From: Antedon mediterranea
Taxonomy: Eukaryota > Animalia > Echinodermata
Assembly (NCBI RefSeq): GCF_964355755.1
Contig: NC_092673.1
Span: forward strand, 16,092,948 to 16,156,947
DNA length: 64,000 nucleotides
Direction of reading: 5' to 3'
A model generated the notes under the pieces. The model was given only the letters and a program-made list of their open reading frames with translations, was not told the origin of the DNA and searched no databases. The position numbers and the translations under genes are program-made. Positions 21,074-64,000 of this stretch are shown piece by piece. The first letter of the stretch is position 1. Each line of letters begins with the position of its first letter.

Positions 21074-21993
21074 GTAACAACATTAAAAAAACTGGTATTA
21101 TTGAAATTTAGATGTTTTGCGCCGTGGACAATTTCGAAAGAAATATATTGAATTTTATTGAATATTGAATTTCTAAAAATATTCTTTAACACACTGTATA
21201 TAGGTATATATAGGTAAAAAGCATTTTTAGCAACTTTTTTCATTTTTAACTGTTCAAAAGTAGATGGCAAAACTAGATAATTAACTTTCAAAATGACGTT
21301 AGTAGCAATATATTATTGTTTTCTTGTTTATCAGTGTTTGACTGCTGGCTATGTAGTGTTTACATTTATATCCTATGTAACTGTTACCTCTTGAAATTTT
21401 TGTGTTTTAATCCATGATACACTTTCTTCAAGGTAATTCAGTGATCATTAATTTACTGCCCAGTCCAGAAGGTATGTTGCATCATGTATTTCATTCTTTT
21501 GATTTATTTATTTGACAGTAAAAATGAAAATAATTGAAGCAGGAAAAAAAAGTTTTAAATAATATAAAACTTATTTCCATTTGGGACCCTAACAATTAGA
21601 ATCTAGAAAATATAACAATTGATAAACATGGATAAAAAACTGCAAGCTCAAGAAAACAATAACATACAATATTAACAATATACACAAATTCATAAAATGT
21701 TGTTGGTACAAAGGTGAATTCCAATTTGGTTTAAATGTGTGTATGTTGGTGATTGGTTTAATTATCCTGGGTTAATGAATTCCATGTCTTTTACATTGTA
21801 GTATAAGCTAGATTGTGCCCTGTGCTACTAACATGTGGAAACTTAATGTACATTAGTGAAATAGATAAAACCTAAATCGAGCCAGATTTTAATCTTTGAC
21901 TCCATACGCATGGCTATAGATCCTTCTGTGAGTCAATGTTTAAACAATATACTGGCAATAAATCAACTGTTTAACTACTGCTTGCAATTACAG

Positions 21994-24504: not shown

Positions 24505-24538
<34 letters not shown>

Positions 24539-27250: not shown

Positions 27251-30200
27251 GTTCAAGTTCAAGTTCAGAACAACATCGTAGAAGGTAAATATTTTTTTGA
27301 TTAACACCACTCTCTTATTACCACACTCGGACTGTTAAAATGTAATTACAGTCTTACAGTTTTAACTATAGAGCTACAGCCACTACCGTATAACTCCTAT
27401 TTAGGGGTGTTCCTTGAATATAAAAATCCCCCTTTTTGTTTTACGGGAAAAACTGTAATTTTTTTCACTAAAAAATGTGTACGCATACATAGTGAATGAG
27501 TGGCCCATCGGTTAAGACAATGGAACCGTAAGACATAGCCATAACATCGGCAAGGGTTCCAGGCTCATTCACTTTATGGTTCAGGTGGTAGAACAATATA
27601 AACTGTAGAGTTCCAGTGTACACATCTGGCTCTTTTGCACTTTAAAGAACCTAGTACATCTTTCAAGACGAATAGGGGTTACCCCGGTGTACTAGTATAC
27701 ACACACACACACACACAGCAACTGTCATATACAGCCACTTATCTAGGGAGCCGCACATCCTTTAGGGACAAATGAATAAAATAGAAATAAACAAAAATAT
27801 TTATTGCTGTATGCATGTGATGGTGTTTCTGTGGGATCTCCACTTGTCCTAGTATAGTATTACCTATATTTAATGACGGAATTGAAAAAGTAAAGTCGGT
27901 CTTCCAACAAAGAAAATATTCTCTCCAATTCAATGAATACACAACATTCATTTTTGTCTGTTTAATCCCTACTGTCTTAAAGCAGTTATGTAATCACCAC
28001 AAAATTGACCACTTCAACCTTGAATTTGATGTCAAGGCAAGGTGGCTGGAAGAATGGCGGCGCTCAAATATTCAATTATTAGGTTTTGGTTGGATTATTC
28101 GTTGGTCCATCTCATAGCACAAATTTTCTTGTTTCAGAAAAGACTGGTCATCCATTAGTGTCACTTTAAATGTTAAAATAATATCCTTTTAAAACAAAAT
28201 CAATTTGAAAGTAAATTTATCACGATGACATCAGTTCATTGCTTGGAAGATGTATTATACTTTATATGGCCTTGTTTCTTTTGAATAGTGTCGAATAAAC
28301 CGTTTGTTTAGACTGACCGCATTTCTGCTAAATTTGTGCTTTTAAATAACTCTTTAAATTGGTGGTTAGTCGTTGACAAAATTACATTACCCAAAATGCA
28401 ATGCAATCAAGCAGTCAAACATATAAGGCCCTGTTTCTGCTGCCAAAGCTGCTGTTGAAAGTGAGAGGCGTAAAACTTCCTTTATTGCGACTTTTAAATA
28501 TCGAACAAATAAATGAATGGCAATTTAAGTAAAAAGGATGAATTTTAAAATGACCACCAAAGAAGTATTGTTAGCAGAAAAGGGGTACTAAAAATACCAT
28601 ATTTTGAGCAGTTGCAGCAGAAACAGGCCCTAAGATTCTATATACAATAAAATATTATTTTGCGTTGCAGCTAAGTTGCACAGCAATAACCAGTTAAATG
28701 GCATTCTAGCCTCCAATCATTTAAGCCTGTTTTTCTGTCGATCGTTAAGTTGCGTTCAGTTTAAAATCGTTAACGATTAACAGGAAAAGGGGGTAAAAAT
28801 CAACTTTAAAAATCATTAAAATCTGCAATAGTTAACAATTACGGTTGTTACGATCGTTAAAACTGACCAATCAAATGGTCCACAAATTACATCATTGCAG
28901 TTTGTGATGACAGTGGCGTAACAGGCGGGGGGCAGGGGGCGGAATACCCCCCCCCCCCCCCTGGCGGATTTTACCGGGTTGAGAAGCGTTCGATCGGGCT
29001 GGGTAACAAGTCAAAAAAATAAAATAAAATACAAAGAAGGGATAGAAGAAAGAAAAAGAAAGAAAATATAAGAATAAAATATACGATATACGGTATGATA
29101 TGGCTTCAAATGAGTCACAGTACAGTATGATATTCAAGTAAGATGATATGAAATACACAAAATCCTGACTGACCACTCTTGGGAAGACGCACTGCTTATC
29201 AGTACATTAACATGCGGTCAGTTGACTGTGGTTTTTGGCGTCTTTTATCTAAGCCGCCATCGCGGGCATCTCATACACAATTGTGACGCTGTGCTGTGCG
29301 TGTGAGGCCACCTTAAACAAGAAATATTTCTTACAAAAAACGCCGCGTAACTTTTTGACTGGACAGTTGTAAGAACAGCCTTCATTAATCTAATATAATA
29401 GGTCGGCCAATCAAAACGCAAGTGAACAATTGGGACTTTACTTGTGATTTATGTCATTGGCCTGTCAGCACAGTCGTTTCTTTCTAGAATTAAACGCACA
29501 AACTTGTATTGGGAATAATGTATGTTTATGTGGTTATTACTATCGCATTTAGGTATTGATAATAATAATAATATGGCTTTTGAATATATAATTACTGTCT
29601 GTAGAATAACGTTTATACATTTTCGGTTCGCGATGAAAAGTTATATGAATGGATTTGTAATATAGGTATTTATAATAATAGTATATGGGTTGTATTATTG
29701 CTAAGCTATCACCAAATCGCGTTATAACATTATTTCACAGGGTTTTTTGCACCATTGATCAATACCAAACGCGTATCTGTATTATAGTTTTTAATGAATC
29801 ATTACATTACTAAAAATACCCAATTAAATCAATCGCGTCAGTCCAATTCCGACTTATGTTTCGATCACATAGTTCTGTGTCTACACTGTCCCAACTAGTT
29901 TAACAAAAAAAGTGTGATGTGCCCAAATATGGTAGTGATATGCCCGAATATCGTAGTGATATGACATCGTCATGTCTATATAATATGGGCACATCATATT
30001 TAGTTTGATAGTATAGACAGAGCTTAAGGATTATATTTAAAAAATGTTTTCTTACATTTTGAAAAAAAAGTATTTATTTGTTTATAAGCCCAATTTTCCA
30101 GTCTTAATTTTACATTTTGAAAAAAAAGTATTTTATTTATTGATAAGCCCAATTGTGCAGTCTTATTTTACATTTTGAACGAAAGTATTTATTTGTTGAT

Positions 30201-33200: not shown

Positions 33201-35265
33201 GGGATCTAGCCTAATTTCGGTCGGCAAGAGAATGCCGTCCTCTGACAATTTAAGATCGGCAATAAGGTCGGCAATTGAAATTCGTGGGCTGGAAATTTCA
33301 CCAAATTATATAGTTCATAAACAAAAGAGTTTAGCCGGAAATGCGATTTGCGGCCATACATAGGCCTATAGAGAAAAAAAAAATTCGAGGGTATGGTTCC
33401 ACTAAACAATTTAACGATCCACCCCGCCGTCAAACCTGGTTACGGCCCTGTTTCAGTCTTCTAACCGGAAAAATTACTACCTTTGCCAGGTGCGGATCCA
33501 ATGTTAGATTGGGTTTTCACATGTTCAAATGTTATGTCACCTGAGTTTTTAACGGTGGAAAATGTACGATCATTTTGCTGATTGCTGTGCAATAAATGGG
33601 AGTGTTATTTCCAGGCCAACTACTACTAGTTAGGCGCCATTTATCATGAATTTTATGTGCGAGAGTACCATTTCCGACGATCTAGGGGTGTCATTTACCA
33701 AAATTCGCTTCGCCACAGCCCCCACCATGGGGGGGGGGGGGGGCTGGGGCTCAAGTACTTGGTGTCTGGAAGGATTTTCCCCTCTTTGCCCCCCCCCCCT
33801 GACAAGACCCCCTTGTTACGCGGCTGTGTGATGATGATGATGGTACGCGCTGACAATTCTTGAATTTTTACAACGCGACGATGTTTTTCACTTTTTTGTA
33901 CACTTTCAAGGCATGATATTTCAAAACAACAAGTGCAAGTCAAATTAAATTATAATATTACAACAATTAAATTTAATGTGTGTCTTTAATGAAGGCGTAG
34001 ATTAAGATATCAACGAAAGCATGTCCTAGGCTGGGTTGAAGCATCAAAACCCGTAACTTTTTCAATTTTCACGTGGCTGGCCTTGGTTTTGCAACACTTC
34101 ACGTCCGCGTGTTCCTGCAACGCTCGGAAGAACCAAGAAACTATGAACGATCGCGTAAAATATGTGTAAATATTAGCGGTCTGGCTTGATCATCGTCATT
34201 ATTATTTTATTTTCAACTTTACCGATTTTAAACTCGACGCAACTAAATGATTGACAGGAAAACAGGCTTTATGTGTTTTTTACTGTTATTTTCACATTAC
34301 CATTTATAAATGCCAGTTAAAAGTGGTTATTCCCATTTCTGCTGCCAAGAAATTTGGGGTAATTAATTCACACAGTTATTAATACATTTTTTTGTGTTAC
34401 TGCATTCAAATGGTTCAATAACTTTTTATTTATTATTTCACACCTAAGAACATATGAAATGATTCCCATTTCAATGATTGAGAGTACAATGATGATGTGC
34501 TACTGCTGGTGAATAATGTGTGTTTAAATACCAACCAATGTGAAAGGGAACATTTTGAATGCCTTCCTTCCACATTCCATTGGAGTTCACTCCATTTAAT
34601 AGAAAGTCAATCTATCATTCATTATAGTCATATACTAATTATGTGTACATCTTTATTTATAGGCTGACTAAAAAGGACATTTTCAAAGGTAATTTAATTT
34701 ATATATATATAAATCCAAAGGCAAATTACTACTTGTCAAAAAAACTTCATTTTTGAACAAGAGGCAAGAGTTATAATTTGTGATTTGTAATTTTAAAACA
34801 TAATTTGATTTAATGGGCAATTTTTTTGCTGGGAGTAGTTTAAAAAACCTATTTCTTTTCAAATTCACTCGTTTGATTTTCGCGTTGCTGTTCTATTGTT
34901 AGTCAACTGAAGCTATTGTTAATTGAAAGGCTTGTTACATAACCATTGCACCAAACTCGCATACACATGCTTGTAATGATATTAGCCTAAATCACAAACA
35001 GCATTAAGACACACACAAATATATATATTTCTTTTTATCGGAGAAATCTTATGTAGGAGAATTTTACAGTATGCACTCTCGGAGTGGCTTTCTAGTTATT
35101 AATTGCAACAATTTTGTTTGTAGTCCCTAAATTGATAGAAAAATTTAAACAAAACAGGGAACCTTTCTCATAATTTCTCTTTTAATTTCAGAGTGTATTA
35201 TTCTGGCAATTTGTTTGCTTTTGGTCATAGTCATGGTAATCTTGATAAATGAATATAAAGAATAG
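27251..35265 (+). CDS. 3' cassette 2: near-identical duplicate of cassette 1, terminal exon truncated after TM1
   Basis: Exons 27251-27284, 34663-34688, 35192-35265. A 1-nt deletion (gaatag versus gaaatag) creates TAG at 35263-35265. Confidence 0.6.
29870..30027. mobile_element. MITE (family also at about 39412-39543)
   Basis: tgtctacact... / ...agtatagacagagct ends, internal gtgatgtgcccaaatatggtagtgat repeats shared with 39418-39470. Confidence 0.55.
30048..30275 (+). repeat. About 57-bp tandem repeat, about 4 units
   Basis: ttacattttgaa...aagtattttatttgttgataagcccaattttgcagtctt repeated, with isolated units at 30460, 30820 and 31040. Confidence 0.75.
31386..31746. mobile_element. Fold-back MITE
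   Basis: aaggcccatacactaggacgataacga / tcgttatcgtcatagtgtaattgggcctt, with arms complementary along most of the length. Confidence 0.7.
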
Positions 35266-36455
35266 CAGATGCTGTCAGTAGCATAGTATTGGCTGTAACT
35301 GTGGTGGGATATGGCTTATATGTATGTAGAAAAATATACTCTTATCATCGGAGAGAGCGATAATGAGACTAATTCATGTCAACTGCCTTAACTGGCAATT
35401 CAACCATCTACAATTGCTTAGAACAAGAGAAAAGACATTGTAAATCAATGACTCTAGCCATCAGTGCAATCTCGGTGGTTCAGAGAGCTGTTAGTCTGGT
35501 ACGTGGTAATGGGTTTAAGTCTCACCCGAGAATTACTTTTTTCAGTGTTCTCAGTATGTACTTAGTATAAAGTAAAGTTACGTCAGAGTAGGGCAAAAAT
35601 CTGACCAATTACAAAAGACATTATTCATCTAGCTATACTACTCAAATTGTTTGTAACAGATTGTTTGTTAGCATATACTGTACAACATTCCAAAGATTGT
35701 AATTGATTTAGTAGTATTACCATGGACGAAATATATACAGATATTGTACTGTATATTTCCTCCATGGTATTACCACCAGCTAGGAAGTCATGTTTATTTG
35801 TATATTATATATTGTTTGTTTGTATATTTGTCTATGGCAAAGGTAAAGGAATTAAATAAAACTTTGTCATACTGTAATTCTAAAGAAGTTAAATTTGGGT
35901 CAAAGGGTAAGCTTTGCAGTTGAGCTTGACAGCTATAGACAGTAGTCCAACTCAATCAGGAATGCCGAATCACTCGCCACATTCGAACAACTCCTCAAAT
36001 GCCACCTTTTAATTTGCATTTTCAACATTTTTGCATTTTTTGTTGACTGTTCAGCGCTTAGAGATTTAGAATAAAATGATCACCTATTGTTATAATTAGA
36101 ATCTACAAAATATAACAATTGATAAACATTGATAATAAATTGCAAGCTCAAGAAAACAATAACATATAATATTAACAATATACACAAATACATCAAATGT
36201 CATTGTTACAAAGGTGAACTTTCAATTTGGTTTTAAATGTGTTTATGTTGGTGATTGGTCATTGCAGTATAAGCTAGATTGTGCCCTGTGCTACTAACAT
36301 GTGTTAACTTAATGTACATTAGTGAAATAGATTAAACCTAAATTGAGCCAGATTATAACCTTTGACTCCATATGCATGGTAAAAGATCCTTCTTTCAGGC
36401 AATGTATAAATACAATTACTGTACTCAACTGTTTAACTGTTGCTTGCAATTACAG

Positions 36456-38856: not shown

Positions 38857-39068
38857 AGATCTTGAAGATAGTTGCAGTAGTTTGTGTTGTTTTATGCGCA
38901 ATCTTTGCAATCATGATGATTGTATTTGATGGAGTAGTAGCAAGAATTGGCAACGGTATTGGTTTCTTTGTAACTGTTGTTTCATTTATCGTAGTACTTG
39001 TACTTAGTGTAAATGAGAAGTCTCCTACTCAGTCTCTGACAGCTGACAATTCAACAATCAATATCTAG
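38857..39068 (+). CDS. Alternative terminal exon 4 with two predicted TM helices
   Basis: gatttcag|ag atc ttg aag..., phase 1. Encodes EILKIVAVVCVVLCAIFAIMMIVFDGVVARIGNGIGFFVTVVSFIVVLVLSVNEK...*. Paralogous to 38215-38327. Confidence 0.7.
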
Positions 39069-39674
39069 TAATTGTAGCAAATGATTTTACATTTCCTTCC
39101 TATGTTATTTAAGTAAGCCTATAGTTTTATTTATCAGAAACTGGTAAAACTTTTCCAGAATAATGCATGACTAAAGATCTAGAAGCAGTTAAATTTCTGG
39201 TGTTCAGCATCAAAATAACAGATGACCCAAAATGTAACACAACCATGTGTCAAACTTGGATCCTGTTGATAATCATTTCTTATATACAATGTGTGTGATT
39301 AGTCTGTTTAGATCAGGAAAGATTGATTTGAAGATCTTTTTGTTTTTGATGGTTTTTTGAAGACTTATTTGCACTAAAGTCAATATGGCTACAGAATGTT
39401 GAGAAACAGCTAAAAAAGTGTGATGTGCCCAAATATGGTAGTGATGTGCCCAAATATGGTAGTGATATGACATCATAATGTCCATATATGGGCATATCAC
39501 ATTTTGTTGTCACATAAAGTTTGATAGTGTAGACAGAGCTTTAGCCTATTATTATTTTAACATAAACTTTTTCAGAAAAATACAAGTCACTCTGTGTTCC
39601 TTATTGTCTGTAATGTGAAATTTTCAAAATGTTGCCTTCCTTCTGACTGAAATTGCTACATTGATTTTGAAATT

Positions 39675-39880
39675 AGGGACTTTACGAATTAAACACGACG
39701 GGAAGCCATAGGACGGTGCTCATGAATAATTTATGCATGCGCTTTAACAAAGTGAGCACTTTGAGAACGATAGGTGATGGATCGGAGAGATATACGTCGT
39801 CTTCTGTATATGATTTTACGCTCTAGCGAACACAGGATATTCGTCGTCCTCCTCTAACCATCGTGTTTCGTAAAGTCCCT
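39675..39880. mobile_element. MITE with 3-bp TSD (Harbinger-like)
   Basis: TIR agggactttacga / tcgtaaagtccct, ATT on both sides. Confidence 0.65.
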
Positions 39881-40065
39881 ATTGTAAAATACAGTCTACT
39901 CTCCCAACCAGAACATTTATGAAAAAGACCATTATATTTTATTTTAAATTAAGTATGTCTGGCTTCTTAAGAATAGTTTGCTACTTTGGTATTACAGGGA
40001 TAAAAAACAAGAAAATAATGAACATAGTAGAGTACCAACCAGTTTTATGTTGTAAATAATATTAT

Positions 40066-40568
40066 TGTTACCGTAGGCGTCCATCATAAATAAATTACAA
40101 ATTTTGTAGATACTGATGTTCCTTTATTTATTCTCTGAACTATCTCTTGTATCTCTACAAATTACAGTATCATTAGCAACTTGAATAAACACCGTGAAAA
40201 CTATAATAAAACAAAGATTAGCATTACAATGTAGGCCTAATCATATCATCATCGTACAGGCAGACAAGCACAGGTCTGACTCATGGGGCCGGGGAACATG
40301 ATACCCTAAGGCTTAGGGCTAGCTCTCAGCAATGAAGTAAAACTCAACTAATTAAAAATACAAGTCATAAGTTATAATTACAATCACATGAATAACCATG
40401 TGTAAATACCTTGTAGCCTTATTGGAGCCTATGGTAAAGATACTTTTAACAATGATTATCTCTAAACTTTATGTCATAAAAAATGTCTTATAAAATGTCT
40501 TATTCTCTCTTATCACTTTTTATCTATTTGAACTCTAGAGGGCCTCCTGTAAGTAGGCTGCAGTTGCA
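40066..40568 (-). repeat. 3' LTR
   Basis: No difference from 43604-44106 seen by eye. Confidence 0.93.
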
Positions 40569-40580
40569 CTCCCACCCAAA

Positions 40581-43500
40581 TCATCTATGATTTAACCTTA
40601 ACTCCCACCCTTGCCAGAATAAACACAAGCAATGCAAAACTGGAAGTATATTAACAATATTTACCAAAACTATAAAGAATAAGTTAACAGTTTGTATTTT
40701 TGAATTCTTTTCGTTCACTTGTTGAAGCTCGACTTTTATATTTACAATTTGTTCCTTTAATTCTTTTCCTTGATTTTCAATCCAATCTTTATTCCGATTC
40801 TGCTCCGTCGATACCTTCTCTTCAGATATATCATTTATTCCTTTGAAGAGCTTTTTCGTTTCCTCCTCTAGCATAATCTCATGCTTTTCAGTTAATTCAT
40901 CTGTGATTTTCTTTGTAACAGCTTCAATCTCTTCTGCATGAGATTCTGCTAACTGCTGTCGAATGTTCTGGAATTCTTGAACAAATTCGTTCTCTTTGTC
41001 CGATTTTTCAGTACAGAATTGAACCTTGAAATGGTCTTCAACTTCTTCTACTTTGGGTTTCATTTTGCGATCAATTTCAGCAACAACTTCAGAACGCTGT
41101 TGGTTTAATGCAATGCGATGGATATCTTCTTGATGGGCACTTTCATCTTCAAACCTTTTCCGATATTCATTTTCCAATCTTTCTTTTTCATCAATAAACT
41201 GGGTAACTCTTTCATCTAACTCTGAAGTTTTCTTCTGTATTTCTTGGTTAGCTTCATCAAGCTCTCGATGAAGTTGCAAAGTTACATCTTCTTCTTTCTC
41301 CATTTTCTCTGTTAGTTCCTTGTTGTGATTATTAAGAAGTGCAACTTGATCTTCGAAGTCTTTTTGGATGTTCTGACAAGCCTCTAAGTCCATCTCTTTC
41401 TCATCTAATTGGTCTTGGAGTTCCTTTAAATTCTGTTCTAATGCATCTCTAATTTTGTTATTAGTTTCAGCATCTTCTTCACATTTCTTTTTCAATTCTT
41501 GCATTTCATTCTGGTGTCTTTCCTGCAGCTGTGACTTAATCATAACAATTTGTTGTCCATAAGTCTCATCAAGTTCTGCATGTAGTAAAGCCAATTGTTC
41601 ACTAATGTTAGGTGGATTAGACGCTACAGCCTGTTGAAGTTGTTTGTTCATATAAGCAAGTTCGTCATCTGATTTCCTTTTAACCAGATCTCTTTCTTCT
41701 TTAATTTCTGCTAACTCATCATTTTTCTTAGCATACTTTGTGGCTAAATCCTGCAATAGTGTCTCTTTCTTAGTGACAGTCTCTTGTAACTTGATAACCT
41801 GCATTTGTGCTTCAGTCATCTCGTGAGCTGAATCTCTCTCCTTTACATGGAGACTTGTTGGATGTCTCCTTTGGCAAATTTTACAAATACTTTTCTGGTT
41901 ACAGTTCCTTGACACATGGCCATGTTGTAAGCAGCTGAAGCATAGACCATTTTGCTTGATGTATTGCTGTTTTTCGGTTTCAGGTTTTTTGGCAAACGCT
42001 CTGCAGTCACTTAGGTGATGGTTATTCATTTTACACATGAAGCATGATGACATTCCACTGATACTGGTGGCTAGCGTTTGAGATTGGTTTCGATATCTTG
42101 AACTTTTTTCTGTGAATTTTGTTTCATTTTCTGGTATTAAGGTAACAGGATCGCAAACAATTTCAGCTTCGGTCGTCAAAAATGTGGAAAAGTCATTGAA
42201 TGTTGGATAACTACCCTTGATTTGCATAGCGCTCACTGCGTTTCTTTGCCATCTATTCACTAACCAATCTGGTAATTTTTGAAGAATTTTCCGGTTTTCT
42301 CTGCTGTCATTAATAACTTCCAAGCCTTTCATTTCCTTCATTGCTATGTTGCATTGGTTCAAAAAGTCAGAGAGTCGCCTAAGGCCATTGTAATCTCTTG
42401 CTTGAATCCTTGGCCAGCTGTCTAATTTGTCTCTAAATGCTTCGGAAACTATAAATGGATTTCCATATCTTTTTTCTAAAACTGCTTTAGCGTTTTCATA
42501 AGCATGTTCACCTGGTAGCAGAAAGTATCCACTGACAACTTCCTTTGCTGGGCCTCCTATGTATCTCTTAAGGTAGTGAATTCTGTCTGCCTTAGAAATT
42601 CCTTTATTTTCGATTAAACATCTAAAGGATGCGTTCCAATCATAGTACTTAAGAGGATCGCCATTGAATATTGGTGGCTCTGGTGCTGGTATGCGGTTCA
42701 TACTGAAGGCTGAAGAAAAGGCTTCTGCTAAAGCGTTTAAGTCTGTGGTACTGCTAGATTGATTTTGAGGCATTGTCGGTTGGGCTGTTGTTGCTTGTGT
42801 CTGTGTCATTAGAGGTTGAGGTTTGGTTAGGTTGCGAAACCTTAGTGCATGATCATTTGAGGTTTGGTGTGGGGTGGTCATAATTTCTCGATATCCGTTC
42901 TGAATTTCCTGTTGAATTGCATCAACTCGTGCATTCTCTACAGCTGCAGCTTGTTTAGCCTCTAAAACTTTGAACTCTGCTTCAGCTTTGGCATGTTCTG
43001 TTCTTTGCTGTGCTTCCCGCCTTATTTCTTCAAGCCTTGCTTCTGCTTTCTTAATTTCCATTTCAGCTTCCTTTGCTGTAAGGTCTGCTTTCTGTTTAGC
43101 CATTTTTTCAACAAATTGAGCAGTTTTGTTGGCTGCAGCAGCATTCGCCACGGCTTGAGCTTTAATACTAACAATAGATTGACATGAACTCTTTGATGCT
43201 GCAGATTTTGAGGCTTGACACTCAAGGGCTAATGCATGTGCCTTATCCATAGCACTTGTTATACTAGCTTGGATGGAGTTGGCAATGGTGAGATATATGT
43301 TCTCATTCTCCAGGTGATCTTCGCGATGAATACCATCTCTATCTTGTGCATACAATTTATTCAATACGCACCAAGCATCACTATATTCCTTTAATGCGGC
43401 TTTAGCTTTGCATAATGCAGTTTGTATCTCAAATTCGTCGCTTGGAACATCTTCTAGTTCACTTGATGCTTCTTGAGCCTTTCTCTGAGTTTGACTCAAC

Positions 43501-43625
43501 AGTTTTACTTCAGTAGCAATGCTAATTGACAGGGCCTTAGCTGTAGGGCGTCTCTCACTCTGTTCTCTTAGATTCATTGAGTTTTCATCAGCTAAGTTTT
43601 CACTGTTACCGTAGGCGTCCATCAT
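40581..43625 (-). CDS. gag: BEL/Pao Gag fused to an AKAP9/pericentrin-like coiled coil (1014 aa)
   Basis: DUF1759-type capsid region (PPIFNGDPLKYYDW...LEKRYG...ILQKLP) and three zinc knuckles (CFMCKMNNHHLSDC, CFSCLQHGHVSRNC, CKICQRRHPTSLH), followed by about 390 aa of E/K/Q-rich heptads. No protease, RT, RNase H or integrase motifs. Confidence 0.9.
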   Translation of the reverse strand: MMDAYGNSENLADENSMNLREQSERRPTAKALSISIATEVKLLSQTQRKAQEASSELEDVPSDEFEIQTALCKAKAALKEYSDAWCVLNKLYAQDRDGIHREDHLENENIYLTIANSIQASITSAMDKAHALALECQASKSAASKSSCQSIVSIKAQAVANAAAANKTAQFVEKMAKQKADLTAKEAEMEIKKAEARLEEIRREAQQRTEHAKAEAEFKVLEAKQAAAVENARVDAIQQEIQNGYREIMTTPHQTSNDHALRFRNLTKPQPLMTQTQATTAQPTMPQNQSSSTTDLNALAEAFSSAFSMNRIPAPEPPIFNGDPLKYYDWNASFRCLIENKGISKADRIHYLKRYIGGPAKEVVSGYFLLPGEHAYENAKAVLEKRYGNPFIVSEAFRDKLDSWPRIQARDYNGLRRLSDFLNQCNIAMKEMKGLEVINDSRENRKILQKLPDWLVNRWQRNAVSAMQIKGSYPTFNDFSTFLTTEAEIVCDPVTLIPENETKFTEKSSRYRNQSQTLATSISGMSSCFMCKMNNHHLSDCRAFAKKPETEKQQYIKQNGLCFSCLQHGHVSRNCNQKSICKICQRRHPTSLHVKERDSAHEMTEAQMQVIKLQETVTKKETLLQDLATKYAKKNDELAEIKEERDLVKRKSDDELAYMNKQLQQAVASNPPNISEQLALLHAELDETYGQQIVMIKSQLQERHQNEMQELKKKCEEDAETNNKIRDALEQNLKELQDQLDEKEMDLEACQNIQKDFEDQVALLNNHNKELTEKMEKEEDVTLQLHRELDEANQEIQKKTSELDERVTQFIDEKERLENEYRKRFEDESAHQEDIHRIALNQQRSEVVAEIDRKMKPKVEEVEDHFKVQFCTEKSDKENEFVQEFQNIRQQLAESHAEEIEAVTKKITDELTEKHEIMLEEETKKLFKGINDISEEKVSTEQNRNKDWIENQGKELKEQIVNIKVELQQVNEKNSKIQTVNLFFIVLVNIVNILPVLHCLCLFWQGWELRLNHR

Positions 43626-44106
43626 AAATAAATTACAAATTTTGTAGATACTGATGTTCCTTTATTTATTCTCTGAACTATCTCTTGTATCTCTACAAAT
43701 TACAGTATCATTAGCAACTTGAATAAACACCGTGAAAACTATAATAAAACAAAGATTAGCATTACAATGTAGGCCTAATCATATCATCATCGTACAGGCA
43801 GACAAGCACAGGTCTGACTCATGGGGCCGGGGAACATGATACCCTAAGGCTTAGGGCTAGCTCTCAGCAATGAAGTAAAACTCAACTAATTAAAAATACA
43901 AGTCATAAGTTATAATTACAATCACATGAATAACCATGTGTAAATACCTTGTAGCCTTATTGGAGCCTATGGTAAAGATACTTTTAACAATGATTATCTC
44001 TAAACTTTATGTCATAAAAAATGTCTTATAAAATGTCTTATTCTCTCTTATCACTTTTTATCTATTTGAACTCTAGAGGGCCTCCTGTAAGTAGGCTGCA
44101 GTTGCA
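43604..44106 (-). repeat. 5' LTR
   Basis: Direct repeat of 40066-40568. Contains the first ATG of the ORF. Confidence 0.93.
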
Positions 44107-44124
44107 ATTATGCATTAGTATTAT

Positions 44125-47100
44125 TAGTCCAGTCAAAAATCACCCTCACCATGGTATAAGAACGTACCCTAATAAAATTTCATCCGTAGGTTCTATGTAT
44201 ATAGGTAATAACATTTCTTGATGTTGCGTCTTGCAAAACTTGGGATTTTACGAGAAAATTTGACTTTTATACCCAATTTATAACTACCTCATGTCGTATT
44301 ATTGTGTACAGCGAATGCGACGAAGCGTGACTGAAATTACGAGACGCCGTTTGCGCCCGTTGAAAAATGCATTAACAAAGCTAAAAACCTACAAAATTAA
44401 TAGTTTATACAATAATTTAAATATAGTTTACAATAAATTGTATAATAAAATACATAACATATAAAGAAAACTCAAGTATAATCTCAAATATTTACAGATA
44501 TGTGTTTAAAAATGTACAAATCAAAATGGCCTTCCATAAAATAAAGTGCGCCCTCACTCGTCATACTTTTATCGGACTTGTATGGATGGTTATACAAGGC
44601 ATTAATAATACGAAACCCGCGATGCGGTTTGTTAGTTATTGCCTCTGCAAGAGGCAGAATATTATATTTTCACAAATATATTTCTAGTTTTTATCATGGA
44701 AAAAAAGAATTGTATATATTTAAACACATTACAACCTCCAGTCTACCATCATGATGGATTAAGTGAAGCGCCGTATTGTATATGCTATAGCGTAATGATC
44801 TTCTAGTTATCTGGTTATATTCTGGACATTCTTTTTTTCACAGCATTACTTGCGTGGATATCACAATGCATTTGTTTATTCGCGATTATAGTCAATATTA
44901 ATTTGAGTAAGAATCATTTTTAAATGACAGTCCATTTCGCGTATACGATATAATAAAGATTTAAATTAATAAGTACTCTGAAATATTTTCTCATTGGTTA
45001 TCCGCAACAAAGAATCCTTGTGATTGTTAGTTTTGTTTAATTTTCTTTGAATTGTTTATTGGCATCCATATCGTATGATGTGTGAGACAATTTCGTGTTT
45101 TAGAAAATGTAATCCTGCCACCGAAGATTCTTTCTGTTCGAAGACTTCTGACGGATAACTGTGTTATTCTTTTACAATTAATTAATTAATGTTCATCTTC
45201 ACTTTTGGGAAAAATAGCCTACATCTTTTAGGTTTAAAACGTCATTTATAAGTATTTGAATAAGCCAACAAATTAAACTACTCAGTGTTCTCCCAAGCTT
45301 TTTAAATTTTCTAAATGTATTAAAATGCGTCGGACTCGGCGGATAACAATATTTGAAATAAATGCATATAAAACTTTTGTTCTGGACTTTACTTTTTTGT
45401 CCCAAGTGAGAACTTTCAGGCCGTGGAGGTGAACCGATCGTTTATGACATGCTTTTGTGTATAAAATGTCCAATAATAATTGTAGGACTACTCTCAACCA
45501 AAACACTTTATATTAGAATGTATTTAATATACGTCACGTCTTAAAAAATTGGGAGAATTGGGTAATACAGTATGTCGTTTCTCGCGAATCTTACATCACA
45601 CTCCAACATTCTCACTTTCTTTTATTTAGTAAAATGTGAACGGTGGAAAAACGGGAAAATACTTTAAATTTAGAATGCTTTGAATTCTGGAAGACGACTT
45701 CGAACTTAAAGAATCGTCATGAATGACGTTTATTGGCTCAAACTTCACACATCGGTACGATGTGAAGGCCAGACGGATTCAGAGAGGATCAAACCGGCTC
45801 CTCCTCCCCATTGGCAGTGGGGGCATCGGCGGGTGAAAAGGAAAAATGATAAATGTTGATTCAGACGAATGCCAACCAGCCCCATTGATACGCTCTTAAT
45901 AATTGTTGGAAAGTGAAAGTAGGGCTACTTGAGGTAGGGGGCCTAGTATCTTTCGTATAGGCCTACACGAAATGGATTATCCTTAAATGATTGGTTCTTA
46001 CTCTAATTAAGATCATAATCGCGAATGATAGTTCAAAATATGCAATGCATTGTGATATCCACGCAAGTAATGCTGTGGAAAAAAAAAATGTCTAAAAATA
46101 AAACCAGCAAAACCAGTAGATCATTACGCTTCAGCAGATATACAAATATACACTTAATCCATCATGATGGTATACTGGAGGTTGTAATGTGTATAAATAT
46201 ATACAATTCTTTTTTTCCATGATAAAAATTAGAAATATATTTGTGAAAATATAATATTCTGCCTCTTGCAGAGGCAATAACTAACAAACCGCATCGTGTT
46301 TCATATATTAAAGGGGGATTCTGGGTTTAAAATTGCTTTTAAATATCGTTTATTTATTAAATAAAAAATATCATAACAATATAGACATGTCAGAATGAAG
46401 AAGTAATAACGAGAAATTAAAAAAAATTAATTTCATATACATTTTAGGGTAAATTCATGGAAAGTCTGTTTTTCAGCAGCTTAGGGAAGCTCATTAATAT
46501 TCATGAGATATTCACAAAATCACGTCATCAGTGGATTCCAAACTCGCGACGTCATGTACGTTGTGTTTGTTAACTTCAAATCTCTCTCTCTCCCCTGTCA
46601 AACGACAACCACCCGATCATTGTGAAATACATTTTTTGTAGATTTTCTAAGCTAGGCCTAAAGTGTAATAATAACAGTAGTAGCATATATTTATTTGACA
46701 TAAATACAACATTTAGTAAAGATTACGGAGTCTTAAATTATATACTATTTTTATACCTCGAATAGTACAGATCGTATTATCGGCTTCACGTACTAGGCTA
46801 GGCCTAGCCTAAATCATTTGTTTTCATGGGTGAGAGCCATTCTGACTAGGGATTCCATGCCACGATGGCTACGTTAAAAACATTGGGGCCCATCATGGGC
46901 CTAGCTAGCCTACTAAACGATTGGCCCATAATAATAAAACTCGGTGGTTTCCAAACCTATCCTATCAACCAAACTCCTAAACAATCTAAACCTAAAACAT
47001 TCTACAAAATCGGCTGTAAATATTGAGGCAAAAAAGGTACGATCGCCGTCCGCACGTATGGTGTCCCGATCGTCTAAAAGTAGGCCTAAAATAGGCCTAG

Positions 47101-48396
47101 TTTACTCTCCAAAAAAGCAGATACTGCATCAAGCAAGTAGACCAGGTAGTAGGAAGGTGACCTAGCCGATTCGGCCCAGTTAAAAATTGAGCTAGCTAGT
47201 GTAGTAGACCCTATATGCGAATTGATACTACCAGGCCTTTTAATAAAGTATTATAGGCTTGTTAAAATTAGCAATATACTTATGTTTACAAATATTCCAA
47301 CTCTCTCATTCGAGCTATATTATCTATACCATTCCGGTAGGTCGAGTCGACCTTCAACCAAATACTGTACATCGTTCATGTTGTGATTATAGACGGGGTA
47401 TACTCGACCCGACCAGTTTGGTATTGTATACTGTATCTGCTTATCACGTGACATGCCAGGCATGGGCAGGTAGAGCACGTGTATTGTCGTCTCGCTCTCC
47501 TCGCTCAGCAGGAATGCATACGTTACGCTTCATTGATTTTGAAGGCTTTCCCTAAGTCAGTGCGAAAATCGGCAAACGTAAAGTGCAAACATATCTAATT
47601 TTTCACTGTTTTGATGAATTTTCATAGAAAATTGACTTTATAAATGGGAAGACCGACTACTATAAGTATAATTTCACAAAAGTAATTAATATGGTTAATG
47701 ATAACGAGTCGTCGGAACATTGACCATTTCACGAATTTCCTATTCTGTAAACACAGTGTCATATCGCCGTAGCTGCACTTGCAATCTGGCCTCATTTCAC
47801 AGCCTTCGTTCTGCTTCACTGGGCGCTTATATAAATTGAAACTTTTACCGTTCAAGAGACAAACAAATATATTTTACATTTTTTACTATTCATTTTAAAC
47901 CCGGAACCCCCCTTTAATGCCTTTTTTAACCATCCATACAAGTCCGATAAAAGTATGACGAGTGAGGGCGCACTTTATTTTATGGAAGGCCATTTTGATT
48001 TGTACATTTTTAAACACATATCTGTAAATATTTGAGATTATACTTGGGTTTTCTTTATATGTTATGTATTTTATTATACAATTTATTGTAAACTATATTT
48101 AAATTATTGTATAAACTATTAATTTTGTAGGTTTTTAGCTTTGTTAATGCATTTTTCAACGGGCGCTAACGGCGTCTCGTAATTTTAGTCACGCTTCGTC
48201 GAATTCGCTGTAATGTCAATAATACGACATGAGGCGGTTATAAATTGGGTATAAAAGTCTAATTTTCTCGTAAAATCCCAAGTTTTGCAAGACGCAACAT
48301 CAAGAAATGTTATTACCTATATACATAGAACCTACGGATGAAATTTGATTAGGGTACGTTCTTATACCATGGTGAGGGTGATTTTTGACTGGACTA
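44125..48396. mobile_element. Non-autonomous long-TIR DNA transposon, Academ-like (TAG...CTA termini)
   Basis: About 750-bp TIRs: 44125-44900 versus 46015-46311 plus 47918-48396. Termini TAGTCCAGTC / GACTGGACTA. No TSD. Confidence 0.75.
46312..47913. mobile_element. Kolobok-like non-autonomous element nested in the right TIR of the Academ-like element
   Basis: TTAA TSD (46308-46311, 47914-47917), TIR agggggattctgggtttaaaa / ttttaaacccggaacccccct. Confidence 0.8.
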
Positions 48397-48530
48397 AATG
48401 CAACACATTTCTTTTATATTTATGTTCCATTTCAATGTTTATGTGTTATTATGTGTTTATCCATCTGTATTAATTATCAAAAGTCATAGATAAATGTCGT
48501 AATATACTGTGTGAATGTTTTTCTTAACAG

Positions 48531-49703
48531 CTTGAAATATCACGCTGGACTAAAATAAAAGGAGTGCTGATGTTATGCGCGATTTGAACGATTTGCGCAA
48601 TTTGAAATTGCGCAAAAAAAATCCTTGCGCAATTTGAATTGAAACATGTGTTTCAAATTGCGCAAGCAACGTATTAAATTGCGCAAGTAATCTGCAAATT
48701 GCGCAAGGTTTTTCGACAGATTGTGAAATCATGTACACCCATATTTTTATAGTAATTTCTAAGAATGATTCAAAATTAAAGATAAATATCGCATTTCCTT
48801 ATTTAAGTAGTGCAAATATTGTTATAAGTTAGCATACCGTCGAAGAACCGACGAAGGAAAACGAAGCGGTGGTGTTCCACCAGGCGGGCGCGGCGCGGGC
48901 GGCCGGCTATACTACTCTAGCCTAGGGTCTGGACTACTGATACTGACTAGGTTACATGGCCTAGCTTAAACTAATATTAAAAATTTAAAAAGTGAGTATT
49001 AAACATTATCTTCATTGAAATGGTCTTATTTATATAATAAAAAACCTAATAAAATACTAAATTTTAAACTCCTCTGCCTAGGCCTAGCCTATAGCCATGT
49101 ATGGGAAAATTTACAGTTCGTTTTCAAATTGCGCAAAGGTGTCATATTGCGCAAGAACTATCTTGCGCAATTTACAAATTGTGCAGCGCAATTTAAAATT
49201 GCGCAAAGATTTTCTTGCGCAATTTGAAATTGCGCAAGTTGATTGCGCAATTTGAAATTGCGCAAAAAAATCCTTGCGCAATTTTAAATTGCGCAAGAAT
49301 TATTTGCGCAATTTCAAATTGCGCAAGGATTTTTTTGCGCAATTTCAAATTGCGCAAATCGTTCAAATCGCGCATAACACTGATATTTAAACCAGAACCA
49401 AGTGTCTGCATAGAGGTAATTAATATGAGATTATCACTTTTAAACAAATTTATCATGTTATATAAATCTATAAATAACATGTCATTCCCATGTTTTAGGT
49501 ACTAAGCTACTTAAAAAAGCAACTAAAAACTGTCTGCAATATATATGAGGGCATTGGCTACAATCTACGTGTGTTATGTACTGCTTGTAACCCAGATGAA
49601 CATCACTTAATTGATCTTGACGAGTGTTTGAAAAATGATTTTGTTCCATGTGGAAAAAGAAAGGCTATGCATACTGCTCGTATAAAGCATTTATTTTCAA
49701 TGA
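48531..49703 (+). pseudogene. Remnant last two exons of module A in paralog 2
   Basis: 48531-49415 (homolog of 5433-5537, split by an insertion at 48571-49379) and 49499-49703 (homolog of 5620-5824). The ten upstream module-A exons are not seen between 39 and 48 kb. Confidence 0.8.
48571..49379. mobile_element. TGT...ACA TIR element with 4-bp TSD (Ginger-like) inserted in a Roco exon
   Basis: TIR tgttatgcgcgatttgaacgatttgcgcaatttgaaattgcgc, TSD CTGA. Removing it restores the frame LEISRWTKIKGVLIFKPEPSVCIE. Confidence 0.8.
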
Positions 49704-51551
49704 GTAAGTTGGTTTGGTTATTCTTGATTGTTGTCATCATTACTTCATTCCAATGAATCAACAATAATAACTTTATCTTAATTTGGACATACTGTACTAT
49801 GAAACCTTCACTGGTCTAATGGTGACACCAGTGTATTGATATACTGTAGGCTGGCCATGTAATTTGTTGTCAAATAGTTTCTCATCTTTACCATTCCACA
49901 TTATTTGCCTCATAATTTAGAGTTAAATTTTGTTGTATCCTAATATTCAAGTAACATTTTATGTAAGTATTTTATTTTTTATTATTACAAAATATGTTTT
50001 TGTATTACTGTACTTGGTAGATAATATACTGTATATAAGAATGAAGATTAGATTGATCACCAAGCTATGCTATGAAAACAGTTTTTCTTTCTATACAACT
50101 ACTTGGTGTGTTTGATGCACAAATTTTACCTCTAAATTGTGGGTGTGTCTTATACACAGGTCACTGCTTCACGCACACCAAAAAGCCACACAAAGTTAAC
50201 ACTACAGCAGTAGCCTACAACAACAATTACTGTAGGTCTAGCTAGTTAGTCATAGCCTTTCTAATTTTATTGCAATAATGTCTTGCCTAGAGGGTCGATT
50301 ACTACATAGTGCATTAGATATTCTACCTAGGCCTTCACCTATTCTTTACTAATCTGAACTTGTGTGTGTGTGTAGCTAGATCAAATAAAACACAATTATG
50401 GAAAAGTCCACTAATTGCGGTGATTATCACGTTTTAATTACACTTGATACTGTGGTTTATTAAATTACATCCCTGTGTTAACAGTCACATATTTCTGTAA
50501 TCATATAGACAATAGTTTATACATCAAGCGTCATCTAAAAGAACTTGTTTTTAAAGTGCTAATAAGCTTCCCCTAAGTTCATATTTGTATTGTACAACCG
50601 TAAGTGCCGACACATGGCTAGTGTCTTACAGACTAGTATTGACATGCATTTTCATAATAGACATAGTTTAAAATTAATAATGATTTTGCTGGTTTATTAC
50701 CAGCTGTGGACACTTATCATTTGAATTGATTTAAATCAAATGGTCATACACACAGTAACAAAGTATATTTAAATAACCTTGGTGTAGATATAATAAGAGC
50801 ACTCTAAGATCACTGAAAGTATGCTATAACAATGCCTTACGTTTGCTGCTGAAGCAGCCTAGAAATTGTAGTGCAAGCATGATGTTTGTCTTAAATGATG
50901 TCCCATCCTTGGATGAGTTCATTAGAAAATCTGTTTTTTTAGTTTTAAAAAATCATGTGAACGCAAGTAGTAATTCTTTGATCATGGCCATTAATCGCCA
51001 CGTTCTTAATGTGTCAAGAATGCAAATACAATGGAATGCCTTGTTGCATTGACTTTATATTTATATGTTTTTGTTCTATGAGCTCTTAGATTAAGATTTT
51101 GCTATGGATATATTATGTCACGAAGATATTCTGAAATAAAAAGATGAATGAATGAATGAATATATGCAATTAGAGTCACTTAATTATGATTGTTATTAGA
51201 CAGGCAGATAGGTGGTGATTAATTTAACATCCAAGACATTGAATTAAGATTAAGATTCAAGAACATAATTCCAATTTATAGAGATAACAAATTATTTAAT
51301 TCATCACAAAAACTGTAGAAAAAGTAAAGCTAGATTTAGCTTTACATTCAAGTAGTGTAGCTTGTTGGTTAACGTGCTTGCCTTCCAATCCCAAGGTACG
51401 AGGTTCAGTCCTGACTCTTCCAACTCCACTCCCTGAGCCTCAAGTTTATGCTTGCTGTTAGATGTCTATGAAATAAGACCAAAAAAAATAAAAAATGTTG
51501 ATTTTACTTGGTTCACTCTCACAAATGTGTTCCTTTAAATATTATTTTGTC

Positions 51552-52961: not shown

Positions 52962-53612
52962 TAAAATAAATAATATATTGTTATCATCAACTAAAAAAAA
53001 TGGCCAGTGATCCCACAGTTTTACAACTCGTTTTGCAGTGCAGATCAGTTGTGTAGAATAAAAGTACTTTGACAAATTATTAAAATAAAAACAAATTGTA
53101 TCAAGAATAAAATTTGGAACTACTGTATTTACGGCCATTGGTTTGTTATACACTATTCCTTCACTTCAATATATGTAGGCTAAAAATTAAAGCAATAGTA
53201 CAGTGGATATGGAACTTTGACTTTACTTTTGACTTCAATGGCGCGATCATTCAATACGGTTGACTAATGACTGTTTATTTAGCGGCCCGGCATGGTATTT
53301 GTAGATTCTGCCATGGCGGTACACAACATAGGAGGTTGCGTAGTATATACAGTGACATAACATGGTCGCTGAGACGTCAAATTACTGCTATTTTTGCCTT
53401 TTTATCCTTAAAATTCAGGAAAATGAAATAGCCTATCGTGTGCGGCCCATCAATAAACATCAGTGTGGCAAATGTGAGCACGTACATTTTAGTGGTTTTG
53501 GAGGAGATACGTAAAATTACGCGAACAATTTAGTATCATTTATATATAGATTATTTATCACAGAAGAACACAGTTATTGATTTTTTACTTATAGGCATGG
53601 TTGGTTTATCAG

Positions 53613-56600
53613 ATGAGAATATTCCATCTGCTATTACTGCTCATGGTACAGATGTTCAGGAAGTGTACACTAAGGCATTGACTGAGGGATCTGTCAAAAT
53701 CAATCTTGGAATGCTTAAAGTGATTGGGCCGGAAGGAGTAGGTAAAACTTGCCTAATAAATGCATGTCTTGGAAAAGAGTAAGTACTAGTTAAAGGACAG
53801 TGAAATGAACTATGAAATATGCAAGTTAACTATATGATTCATTTTAATAACCAATTCCCTAATATCGCAGCCTTTAAAGTAACTCAAGTTCACTAATGGT
53901 TTCAAATAATTTTCACTTCAAATAACTCCAAGCATAATGTTTACAGCACTTAAAAGTGACACAAGTTCATTATTGGTTTCAAATGATTTTCACTTCAGAT
54001 TTAACACCAAACATGATGTTACAGATGGAATAGCAGTGATAAGAACTGTAAGCACAACATGGACAGAAGATTATGACGATAGTGGTAAACATGAATAAAT
54101 TTAGCTTTTCATCCCTCTTGCAGTGAACTATGATACACTATTGAAAGATAAACTGGAGATCATACCACTACTGACACACAGTAGTATATTGTTGGATACT
54201 GCATTAATGTTGATATGATCAGTCGTGTAACTGGCTGATTTCTGCATGATTTTTAGTCGCGTGTGACTCTACAGTTCACTATGTCGGTCGGTCGGTAAAC
54301 ACCAACTTGTATATGGCTTTGTCTTGATATCACTTTCATCTAGCTAAGTCAATTTTTCACAGTATATTCCTTATGGCCAGGAAAGGATAAAGGATGTGGT
54401 TATGTTTTCACGGTGCGCAATCAAAAATTATGCGGTCTACGCACAATTTAACGAAATCACGTTTTAATCATATCTCACCAGCATGAATCACAATTAAATA
54501 AAATTTGGTACTCATAAATTTCAAGGCATAAATCATCATATGGCAATACAATTAAGTGCATAGCGCATGAAACGCATGCGTACGCGCTTAAAATTTTCAA
54601 AATTTATTTTGGATGAAATAAGAGTATGTTTCAGGCAATTTTGAGCGTTTAAAAAATTGCCATGAGTGCGCAGATTTTTGCGCGCGTACTGCGCGGTAAC
54701 ATACAAATAATGAATGTTTATGAGTGTAATTGTACAAATAATGGCATGAGGTGAATGATGAAAGGTTATATCAATGAGGCAACACCAAGTTGATATAACC
54801 TTTCATCATTCACCAAATGCCATTATTTGTACCATTACACGAATATAAAACATTCATTATTTGTTTTATATAACATCTAAATAGATTCCTGTCATTTGAA
54901 TCAAATGAAAGGTAGCCCAGCCAAGAGGCCTACATTTCATTCACATTTATTAAAACAGTAACATTTTGTTTTTAATATTATATTAAATGTTATATTTATA
55001 TGGATTTTATAAACACACTTTTAGTGATAATTATGTCAACAAACGACCAAACAATCCTAGGCCTAGCAAGGCTAAAACGGCAAGGCTACTAGCTAGGCCT
55101 AGCTACAGTAGACTAGACCTAGGCCTAGTAGTACAGTAGTACTAGCTTGGCTGAAAGGCAAAACTTTGACAGACAATTGGAACTTATCTAGGATAATTAT
55201 GGTTTTTCCAACGATTCCATGTCTTGTAGGGATGTCCCCATTAATTAATCAAAATCCTAAAAATGATCTAAAGCTAATTTAAATGCCTTTTTGAATGACA
55301 TTATATCTCCAAATCGTACACAAACATCTGCTGCAGCTGTTGCATATATCTGGCGGTGTTGTTTACAAAGAACAGAGGTAGGACAACAGTTGGCGCTGTT
55401 GTATTTCACAGTAATTTGTACAGCAGATCTATTTTCATCCGCGAAACGTTTTTTTTTCGTACACAAATATGTTTAAAAAGTACTATCGATCGTTGAATAG
55501 TACGTACTATTGCACGCCATGTGACCCACAATCGTCCAATCAAATGACAGGAATTTATTTAGGTGTTATATAAATGTTAATATGCACTCTTTTTGCCCGA
55601 TTTCAGTTTTACAACCATTCTTTAATAATATCATAGTTGATTCACTTTTCAACTCGAAATTACGTTATACAAGTGACAGGCTACGCACGTCCGTGTAAGT
55701 TAACAAAATGGTGAAAATATGCTAAATTTTAAAATTAATATAGATTGTCAGAATGCTCAGGAACACCTATTTTGCATTTCATTTTCTTAAATAAGTGTAT
55801 CATGTATGATTTATTATGAAATTAAGAGAACAAAAGTTGATTAGTTCATCATTAATTGCCTATTAAATTTATAAAAAATAATTTCGACAATCAAACAAAT
55901 TATGACATTTTCATAGGCCGAAATAAACTTACCATTAACTTTCTTCCTTAAAATGTTTATATATTACATTTAATAGTATATAGTCTGACAGTGCATCAGT
56001 TGTGTATGGCTCGGTGGTACCGAGATCGAGTCTCACCTTGGTAAACAAAACGAAATAAGAAGCTTAGAGACATAACAGCTTCCACAATATGTGTGCTGTT
56101 TCCAGGATGGCCGACATGTGAGCTCTTAACTTTTCATGCCCTTTTTTTTGCACTCTACAGCTCACTATGTCGGTCGGTCAGTAAACACTAACTTGAGCAC
56201 GCAACTGCAGCCATCTACATGGCCTTGTTATTTTACATATTAAATATTGTTACTCCTGATCTTTTCTGATGCAAAACATTTGATGGTTTGCTTCTTTCAG
56301 GATTGTATTTCATTCAATTTACATTTTCAATTAGTTTGAAGTGATAACCTAATAATCAACTATTATTCACTTAAATCAACCCAAGGACAGAAATAAATAA
56401 CTTTGTTTTGTTATTTTCAGGTAATCCCTCAAAACAGTTTACAAAATTTGTCGCTGACAAAATGAGAACAATGAAAAGTGAAAACGTATGTCAACAACAT
56501 TTTATTTAAAACATTAAAATAATACAAAAGCCATTTATACTTCTTTTTTTGTGGAAAGATATCAATCTAGTCCACTGGACTTACTTACTAACGTAAGTTC

Positions 56601-63962: not shown

Positions 63963-64000
63963 GTAAGAGTAACAAAACAGACAATTGTATTTTTATTACC

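Follow-up and report, generated by a model that had tools for sequence, protein, structure and literature searches.

Within a stretch of 64,000 nucleotides from the crinoid Antedon mediterranea (RefSeq assembly GCF_964355755.1, contig NC_092673.1, positions 16,092,948 to 16,156,947; hereafter the window), an element bordered by two long terminal repeats (LTRs) encodes a Gag protein that continues in frame into a long coiled coil, at the place where a polymerase gene (pol) would be expected. This locus raises the question of where the coiled coil came from, how it was joined to gag and whether it serves the element in any way. The element is probably a pol-less BEL/Pao retrotransposon whose gag was fused in frame to a 1074-bp piece of a host exon, captured by template switching and copied with the help of another element, with the host piece carried along as a passenger. 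All coordinates refer to positions of the window, and the element lies on the minus strand, running from 44106 to 40066 (Table 1).

A preliminary description of the locus had reported identical LTRs, an intact target-site duplication, a polypurine tract and one open reading frame (ORF) of 1014 amino acids (aa), and all of these were confirmed. The LTR pair showed 0 differences over 503 bp, ATTAT borders the element on either side, and the polypurine tract GGGTGGGAG was found next to the 3' LTR and a second time at 40603-40611. The ORF is the sole one of at least 80 aa within positions 39000-45000; its ATG is located 22 nt within the 5' LTR and its stop codon 12 nt ahead of the 3' LTR. Pfam detected DUF1759 at aa 320-463 (E 1.7e-13, over the curated cut-off, 143 of 148 profile positions), and three Cys/His knuckles starting at aa 528, 562 and 581 cover aa 528-593. 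The combination of DUF1759 and three Cys/His knuckles is a mark of BEL/Pao Gag proteins. As previously noted, pol is missing: Pfam assigned no pol family to the ORF, and no protease or reverse transcriptase (RT) motifs occurred in the three sense frames of the interior. The element is a non-autonomous BEL/Pao-type derivative and not a full member of the Belpaoviridae. A Flg_hook match in the ORF (E 0.027) was weak, unrelated and under its Pfam cut-off. No element-like sequence was detected elsewhere in the window at E 1e-20, Rfam yielded 0 matches across the window, and a PDB sequence search with the ORF likewise returned 0 matches. A single-sequence fold of Gag aa 301-597 was uninformative (pLDDT 37.5).

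Table 1. Features of the Antedon mediterranea LTR element, in window positions.
Feature	Position	Strand	Basis
Target-site duplication ATTAT, left copy	40061..40065		sequence
Target-site duplication ATTAT, right copy	44107..44111		sequence
5' LTR, 503 bp, TG...CA, AATAAA from 43670	43604..44106	-	self-comparison
3' LTR, 503 bp, identical to 5' LTR	40066..40568	-	self-comparison
Polypurine tract GGGTGGGAG, 9 nt, abutting 3' LTR	40569..40577	-	sequence
Single ORF, 1014 aa: Gag, host-derived coiled coil, 59-aa tail	40581..43625	-	ORF scan
BEL/Pao-type gag, aa 1-597	41834..43625	-	DUF1759 and three Cys/His knuckles
Captured host segment, 1074 bp, 358 codons, aa 598-955	40760..41833	-	contig comparison and protein homology
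Zone resembling both host-type sequence and capture-free form, candidate microsimilarity at the switch point	41818..41833	-	inferred from alignment ends
3' tail beyond host match, read through by the ORF	40578..40759	-	contig comparison
Primer-binding position directly past 5' LTR, pairs with the element's own LTR RNA	43590..43603	-	sequence, pairing
Candidate self-primer, 9 nt within LTR, complement of 9 nt after 5' LTR	43732..43740	-	sequence, folds
GT-AG intron, 209 nt, inside LTR; same in 3' LTR	43739..43947	-	X1 contig joint

The coiled coil was traced to host proteins of echinoderms. A full HMMER scan of 1.84 billion representative sequences with aa 600-990 as query resulted in five matches, namely the element's own cluster and four non-self proteins (E 2.1e-12 to 7.6e-4), and both named proteins among the latter are echinoderm host proteins. 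The best match, PIK50005.1 of the sea cucumber Apostichopus japonicus (E 2.1e-12; 37% identity to the captured part over 152 aa), is deposited as 'putative A-kinase anchor protein 9 isoform X5'. Second comes a protein from Lytechinus pictus under generic names, as is the case for the sea-urchin homologues, and the other two are unnamed. Identity is 34-37% across the initial 119-155 residues of the captured part, and weaker, colinear matches follow beyond them. In local alignments, three echinoderm proteins scored 329, 309 and 317, compared with maxima of 180, 174 and 188 for 200 heptad-block shuffles each and of 155, 154 and 197 for the reversed query. Judged by these controls, the homology is not a product of chance. 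Homology between the two named proteins themselves was evident as well (E 2e-50). The host origin of the coiled coil and its in-frame fusion in place of pol, as originally proposed, are supported by these homologues, by the shuffle controls and by a contig of a related organism described below. The coiled coil had been estimated at about 390 aa; a host-matching stretch is present, restricted to 358 codons that begin four codons past the third knuckle, and the last 59 aa of the ORF derive from other sequence.

Regarding the donor, the captured piece maps to aa 299 to approximately 770 of the sea-urchin homologue, i.e., to its N-terminal region, and starts partway into the first coiled coil. Based on the protein matches, the donor gene very probably belongs to the AKAP9/pericentrin family, and AKAP9 itself is the likely host gene. 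AKAP9 had previously been named on account of one motif (beginning at aa 681, position 41585) likened to a segment of vertebrate AKAP9; this identity is backed by one depositor's name, that of PIK50005.1, and neither the HMMER scan nor word-indexed searches retrieved a vertebrate AKAP9 or pericentrin. The N-terminus of the Lytechinus protein (P0003) may be AKAP9-like and was taken as a lead only. The word-indexed searches, which would miss a host protein of more than 5000 aa, brought up neither a host protein nor a vertebrate AKAP9 from 6186 candidates of 1776-5000 aa, solely the element's own cluster among 7989 candidates of 626-2000 aa and, when P0003 aa 225-470 was the query, nothing among 911 candidates of 3396-5000 aa. 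For the host locus, 465 pattern matches in metagenomes led to 0 confirmed cases, and a PDB sequence search with P0003 gave 0 matches. Coiled-coil proteins suggested by the Atlas feature search (FAM184A, SDCCAG8) were generic, showed low shared counts and were dismissed as identifications.

The boundaries of the captured segment were derived from contigs of four of the 11 listed sequencing runs, compared over positions 39600-44600. None of the listed runs is recorded as RNA, although X5 may be such a run. In run X1, record 1 spans precisely 40760-41833, and contig records of run X5 break at the same two places. In run X8, obtained from a related organism (organism B), this segment is unbroken within a 6717-bp contig (record 25) at 95% identity, with 55 other letters and 18 gap letters; the 673 letters before and approximately 4950 letters after it do not match the element. 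Run X5 furthermore contains a minor form sharing letters with X8, which differs at 12 positions over 171 nt as compared to 2 for the major form and is taken to represent the host gene in organism A. From such host-type DNA the captured piece diverges by 5-7%. In addition, a 1628-aa single ORF (P0011) on a 15-kb contig of a relative, probably genomic, aligns without frame break to aa 283-1645 of the Lytechinus model, a region that includes the homologous aa 299 to approximately 770. Since the contig of organism B shows the piece unbroken and its counterpart in a relative falls inside one ORF of about 1600 aa, it sits, as far as contigs tell, within one very large host exon. The lack of introns, from which capture of an mRNA had been argued, therefore does not show an RNA donor.

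At the gag side, the host match runs up to 41833 and the capture-free form matches down to 41818, which, going by the alignment ends, leaves about 16 nt resembling both, as would be expected at a template switch. The capture-free form is represented in run X1 by a joint from 40700 to 41818 (depth 46.8, contig depths here being bookkeeping and not copy numbers; letters between not known), which marks a capture-free or internally deleted form and a candidate helper or parent. At the other side, 59 nt (40701-40759) have no counterpart in the host-type contig or in the capture-free form among the alignments shown. Within the tail, aa 982-1000 (40626-40682, minus strand) are hydrophobic, with a Kyte-Doolittle mean of 2.4 over 19 aa; this stretch is probably read-through of AT-rich sequence, and it would supply the coiled coil with a tail anchor. 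Run X8 also contains diverged gag pieces over 42104-44101 (skips at 42112-43022, 43068-43243 and 43287-43720) and an LTR about 92% alike; together they represent a decayed relative, and no gag-to-host-piece joint was present among the listed X8 records.

The chimera has been multiplied. The ORF falls into a 90% cluster of three proteins, the other two being uncharacterized Antedon mediterranea proteins, XP_071953133.1 (1014 aa, 23 of them unlike the window protein) and XP_071958779.1 (889 aa, 5 unlike). The copies thus diverge by 0.6-2.3% in protein, agree, single changes aside, in the residues flanking both junctions and are located on three scaffolds (31.7 and 28.6 Mb, versus 36.2 Mb for that of the window). 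Hence, by comparison of the protein models, the element is present in at least three annotated copies with the same junction, as had been anticipated. A stretch of 12 nt near 40480 occurs in both LTRs and is missing from the X1 and X5 contigs. The identical LTRs sharing this feature, together with the intact target-site duplication, indicate that the present insertion is very recent and was reverse-transcribed, in agreement with its earlier description as young. Capture appears to have preceded the present copies by far, because the piece is 5-7% away from host-type DNA and the copies differ by 0.6-2.3% in protein.

These findings can be arranged into the following scenario. A host RNA would have been packaged together with a BEL/Pao parent element, and the RT would have switched onto it four codons past the third knuckle and back again near the 3' end, so that pol was replaced. 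The resulting chimera would have kept both LTRs, the primer site, the polypurine tract and an intact gag and so remained a substrate for the RT and integrase of a helper. Capture would have come first, and the present copies would have been made later by enzymes of an autonomous relative. The frame may have stayed open through youth, chance or harm done to the RNA by an early stop, rather than through a function of the coiled coil.

A precedent for such events exists. Tan et al. (2016) described LTR-mediated retrocopies across animals, including secondary retroposition and a Pao BATUMI case in Drosophila (PMC5131818). In all 15 Drosophila cases a portion of the ORF was replaced, and microsimilarity was observed at 25 of 29 junctions (PMC5131818). 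Judged against that account, the Antedon capture is probably an instance of LTR-mediated retroposition with secondary spread, a known process: in both, part of a host gene in sense orientation replaces an internal ORF part between LTRs, followed by further non-autonomous retroposition. In contrast to those cases, which were found by exon-exon junctions, the Antedon piece lies within one exon and the host is a crinoid; moreover, its longest ORF comprises a complete Gag plus the host frame, open at 5-7% divergence. The maize element Bs1 is likewise a pol-less LTR element with captured host exonic sequence, present in one to five copies with common switch points (PMC5131818), but it differs in being of plant origin and in having three donor genes, whereas one donor and a BEL/Pao-type gag were found here. 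CopiaMBD of arthropods also represents a retrotransposon family that took up a host protein domain; in that family the domain is described as being in use, with binding shown (PMC6673714), unlike in the Antedon element, which lacks pol and in which a host-domain function is putative.

Acutely transforming retroviruses carry gag-onc fusions in which Gag is in frame with a truncated host protein, pol is lost and a helper is needed. The Antedon element differs from these in having neither env nor infection, and its host part was not seen to be selected or to affect the cell.

Whether the coiled coil has been retained for a use was evaluated from the sites at which it differs. Selection was scored on 40 of 247 difference rows, of which 11 sites are shared by the X5 minor form and X8. 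At these host-type sites, 1 of 11 differences was synonymous and 10 of 11 were non-synonymous, compared with a neutral expectation of 22-26% synonymous (P 0.17-0.26 for one or fewer); among copy-to-copy sites within the ORF, 4 of 13 were synonymous (P 0.38). In this small sample of sequence differences the captured piece shows no sign of constraint, and the coiled coil is most plausibly a passenger. The alternative is that the fusion is selected: Gag would display a dimerising N-terminal AKAP9 coiled coil plus a hydrophobic tail, docking particles at the Golgi or microtubule-organising centre or aiding competition for helper enzymes. The N-terminal position of the piece fits this idea, since the first coiled coil of human AKAP450 (aa 159-463), a candidate counterpart, binds GM130, dimerises and displaces the endogenous protein (PMC3105543). 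A Golgi effect would accordingly be a plausible form of the targeting first suggested; for the centrosome the known basis is missing, as Pfam found no PACT domain in the ORF and none was present in homologues P0001-P0005, which may be partial. On the same side it can be cited that all three copies keep the frame open through the junction and as far as 12 nt short of the 3' LTR, and that the captured part is no more variable than Gag (5/358 versus 16/597 differing residues in XP_071953133.1; 0/358 versus 5/472 in XP_071958779.1). However, ten of the eleven scored host-type differences alter the residue, the piece starts partway into the first coiled coil and lacks PACT, and in-frame retrocopies are common: 14 of 17 young Drosophila cases have a longest ORF that keeps the parental frame, and 14 of 21 older cases have lost the frame (PMC5131818). 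A selected fusion is considered unlikely.

More doubtful still is entry of the host piece at the DNA level, an integrated element having acquired it from the host exon in the course of repair or by ectopic recombination, with retrotransposition afterwards. Both ends of the piece lie in one exon and demand no RNA donor, and the 59 nt of the tail without a match in either parent would suit such an origin; on the other hand, sense orientation, replacement of an internal ORF part and a short two-parent zone at 41818-41833 form the pattern of template switching (PMC5131818). An assembly error as the source of the chimera, or segmental duplication of a single insertion as that of the extra copies, is very improbable: no listed contig spans the whole stretch, no spanning long read was seen and several kb-size duplications occur elsewhere in the window, but three protein models on three scaffolds show one junction with 5-23 differences, X5 records (a second sample from another study) reach 30 letters across the gag-host junction and also cross the host-tail junction, and the LTRs with their 12-nt feature and the target-site duplication bespeak a fresh insertion.

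Several points weigh against capture by template switching with the host piece as a passenger. The 11 scored sites are a subset (55 differences versus X8) and are not assignable to the host or the element lineage. That 55 differences and 18 gap letters have left the frame open hints mildly at selection; the probability of no stop over 55 differences is 0.04-0.06 if all fell on the element and 0.21-0.26 if half did. The 6717-bp contig of X8 is known by alignment alone and could be another element. The captured piece crosses no exon junction and so does not demonstrate an RNA donor. At the gag-host junction, none of the listed records extends over both sides by 31 letters, X5 record 14 having 30, and the other two copies are known as protein models. 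The host protein of this species was not among the proteins retrieved by the HMMER scan or the word-indexed searches. An autonomous partner or helper with pol was not found in viral contigs or metagenomes (53 pattern matches, 0 confirmed).

Beyond the earlier description, the element lacks a tRNA-type primer site next to its 5' LTR and contains an intron in its LTR. Members of the Belpaoviridae possess LTRs of 0.2-1.2 kb, a purine tract of about 10 nt and an 18-nt primer site for tRNA-Arg/Gly (PMC8742986). The Antedon element agrees with them in LTR size, purine tract, a length of 4 kb near the lower end and a Gag with capsid-region DUF1759 and nucleocapsid knuckles; it differs in the absence of pol and of a tRNA-Arg/Gly site, in the LTR intron and in the ORF start within the LTR (PMC8742986). 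No TGG is present within 12 nt past the 5' LTR, nor in the other orientation, and no tRNA-type site was found there. Instead, the first 9 nt of the post-LTR site are exactly complementary to 9 nt of the LTR. This complement was spotted by eye and the statistics were run afterwards: it occurred in 288 of 100,000 simulated LTRs, and 20 of 3015 interior positions had a complement of at least 9 nt. When 43740..43585 was folded, the complement paired with the post-LTR site in the minimum-energy as well as in the centroid structure.

The intron was recognised from a joint in run X1 (43738 to 43948, depth 120) that skips 209 nt with ends CT..AC on the plus strand, corresponding to GT...AG on the element strand; approximately 0.5% of arbitrary LTR end pairs would be GT...AG. 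The donor AAG/GTATTT and, before the acceptor TAG/, a CTAAT branch-like site and a pyrimidine tract were observed, and X1 also contains an intron-holding record of 267 nt (209+28+30; depth 173.7). Should X1 be DNA, the genome would contain intron-less LTRs, implying copying of spliced RNA; should it be RNA, splicing is shown directly. The intron implies a transcript start upstream of 43948, and a start at 43740, considered before, was dropped once the intron was seen. The acceptor falls within the 9-nt complement. Pairing amounts to 9 nt in unspliced RNA and to 10 contiguous plus 4 further pairs after a 2-nt bulge once the intron is removed, and the observed donor ranks best of 18 upstream GT sites for lengthening this pairing.

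In the model considered, the 5' RNA of the element itself would fold back on the 9-14 nt following the LTR and prime the minus strand, with better pairing once the LTR intron is spliced out. Based on the sequence complementarity, priming by the element's own RNA and not by a tRNA is somewhat favoured; that it needs splicing of the LTR intron is evenly balanced at best. Three observations tell against this model: the stability of the leader fold is unremarkable (z -1.39; 17 of 200 shuffles did as well), the intron-less joint was present in one of the four runs (X1), with the letters between 'not known', and splicing gains one contiguous pair plus four beyond a bulge. Self-priming has been described (PMC6317226) for Tf1/sushi and Tcn1 (Ty3/gypsy) and for TAR (copia), which share with the Antedon element the absence of a tRNA site and the pairing of post-LTR bases with their own LTR-derived RNA. 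The Antedon element differs from them in being of BEL/Pao type and in that its complement straddles a splice acceptor and not a mapped transcript start (PMC6317226). Neither self-priming nor an LTR intron was found for BEL/Pao in open-access text, Repbase and subscription journals being outside this search; BEL/Pao was not modelled in the available part of PMC3601003, and primer sites are not mentioned in PMC3118150. Likewise, nothing on Antedon LTR elements was found in open-access text.

Host-gene capture by LTR elements is established, and the Antedon chimera adds a new clean example from an unstudied branch of the phylum. Its less usual aspect is that a whole Gag is fused to a host frame that is open at 5-7% divergence. 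Furthermore, with several young copies, a sibling lacking the capture and the host gene as outgroup, the choice between passenger and selected cargo can be tested by dN/dS. BEL/Pao elements are defined as tRNA-primed (PMC8742986), so the self-complementary site is the less expected part; should splicing assemble the primer, retrotransposition would be controlled by RNA processing of the host. The most far-reaching combination, a spreading, helper-dependent crinoid BEL/Pao element that docks its particles at the germ-cell Golgi or centrosome by means of a stolen N-terminal AKAP9 coiled coil joined to Gag and tipped by a hydrophobic tail, much like an invertebrate version of a gag-onc virus, and assembles its primer by splicing, is regarded as distinctly improbable.

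Further repeats were observed in the window. An element with 484-bp inverted ends, 97% alike, occupies 44124-48397, its start 17 bp away from the right end of the LTR element, and showed high depth in X1, X5 and X8; nested in it is a second inverted pair (44602-44943 and 45964-46311). On the plus strand, 8090-9472 contains a 461-aa open frame with RVT_1 (E 2.1e-28), probably a LINE fragment and, as tested, unrelated to the LTR element. A colinear duplication of several kb, its parts separated by approximately 43-47 kb and 80-96% alike, links 15127-18962 with 60169-63997, 5503-7390 with 49381-51213 and 10670-12839 with 53553-58083; it holds tandem arrays of 27 bp (11743-12305 and 56857-57527) and one of 30 bp (57861-58546). 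Finally, two interleaved 2-kb direct repeats, 98-99% alike, were found at 21594-23641 and 26851-28907 and at 23650-25896 and 33842-36064.

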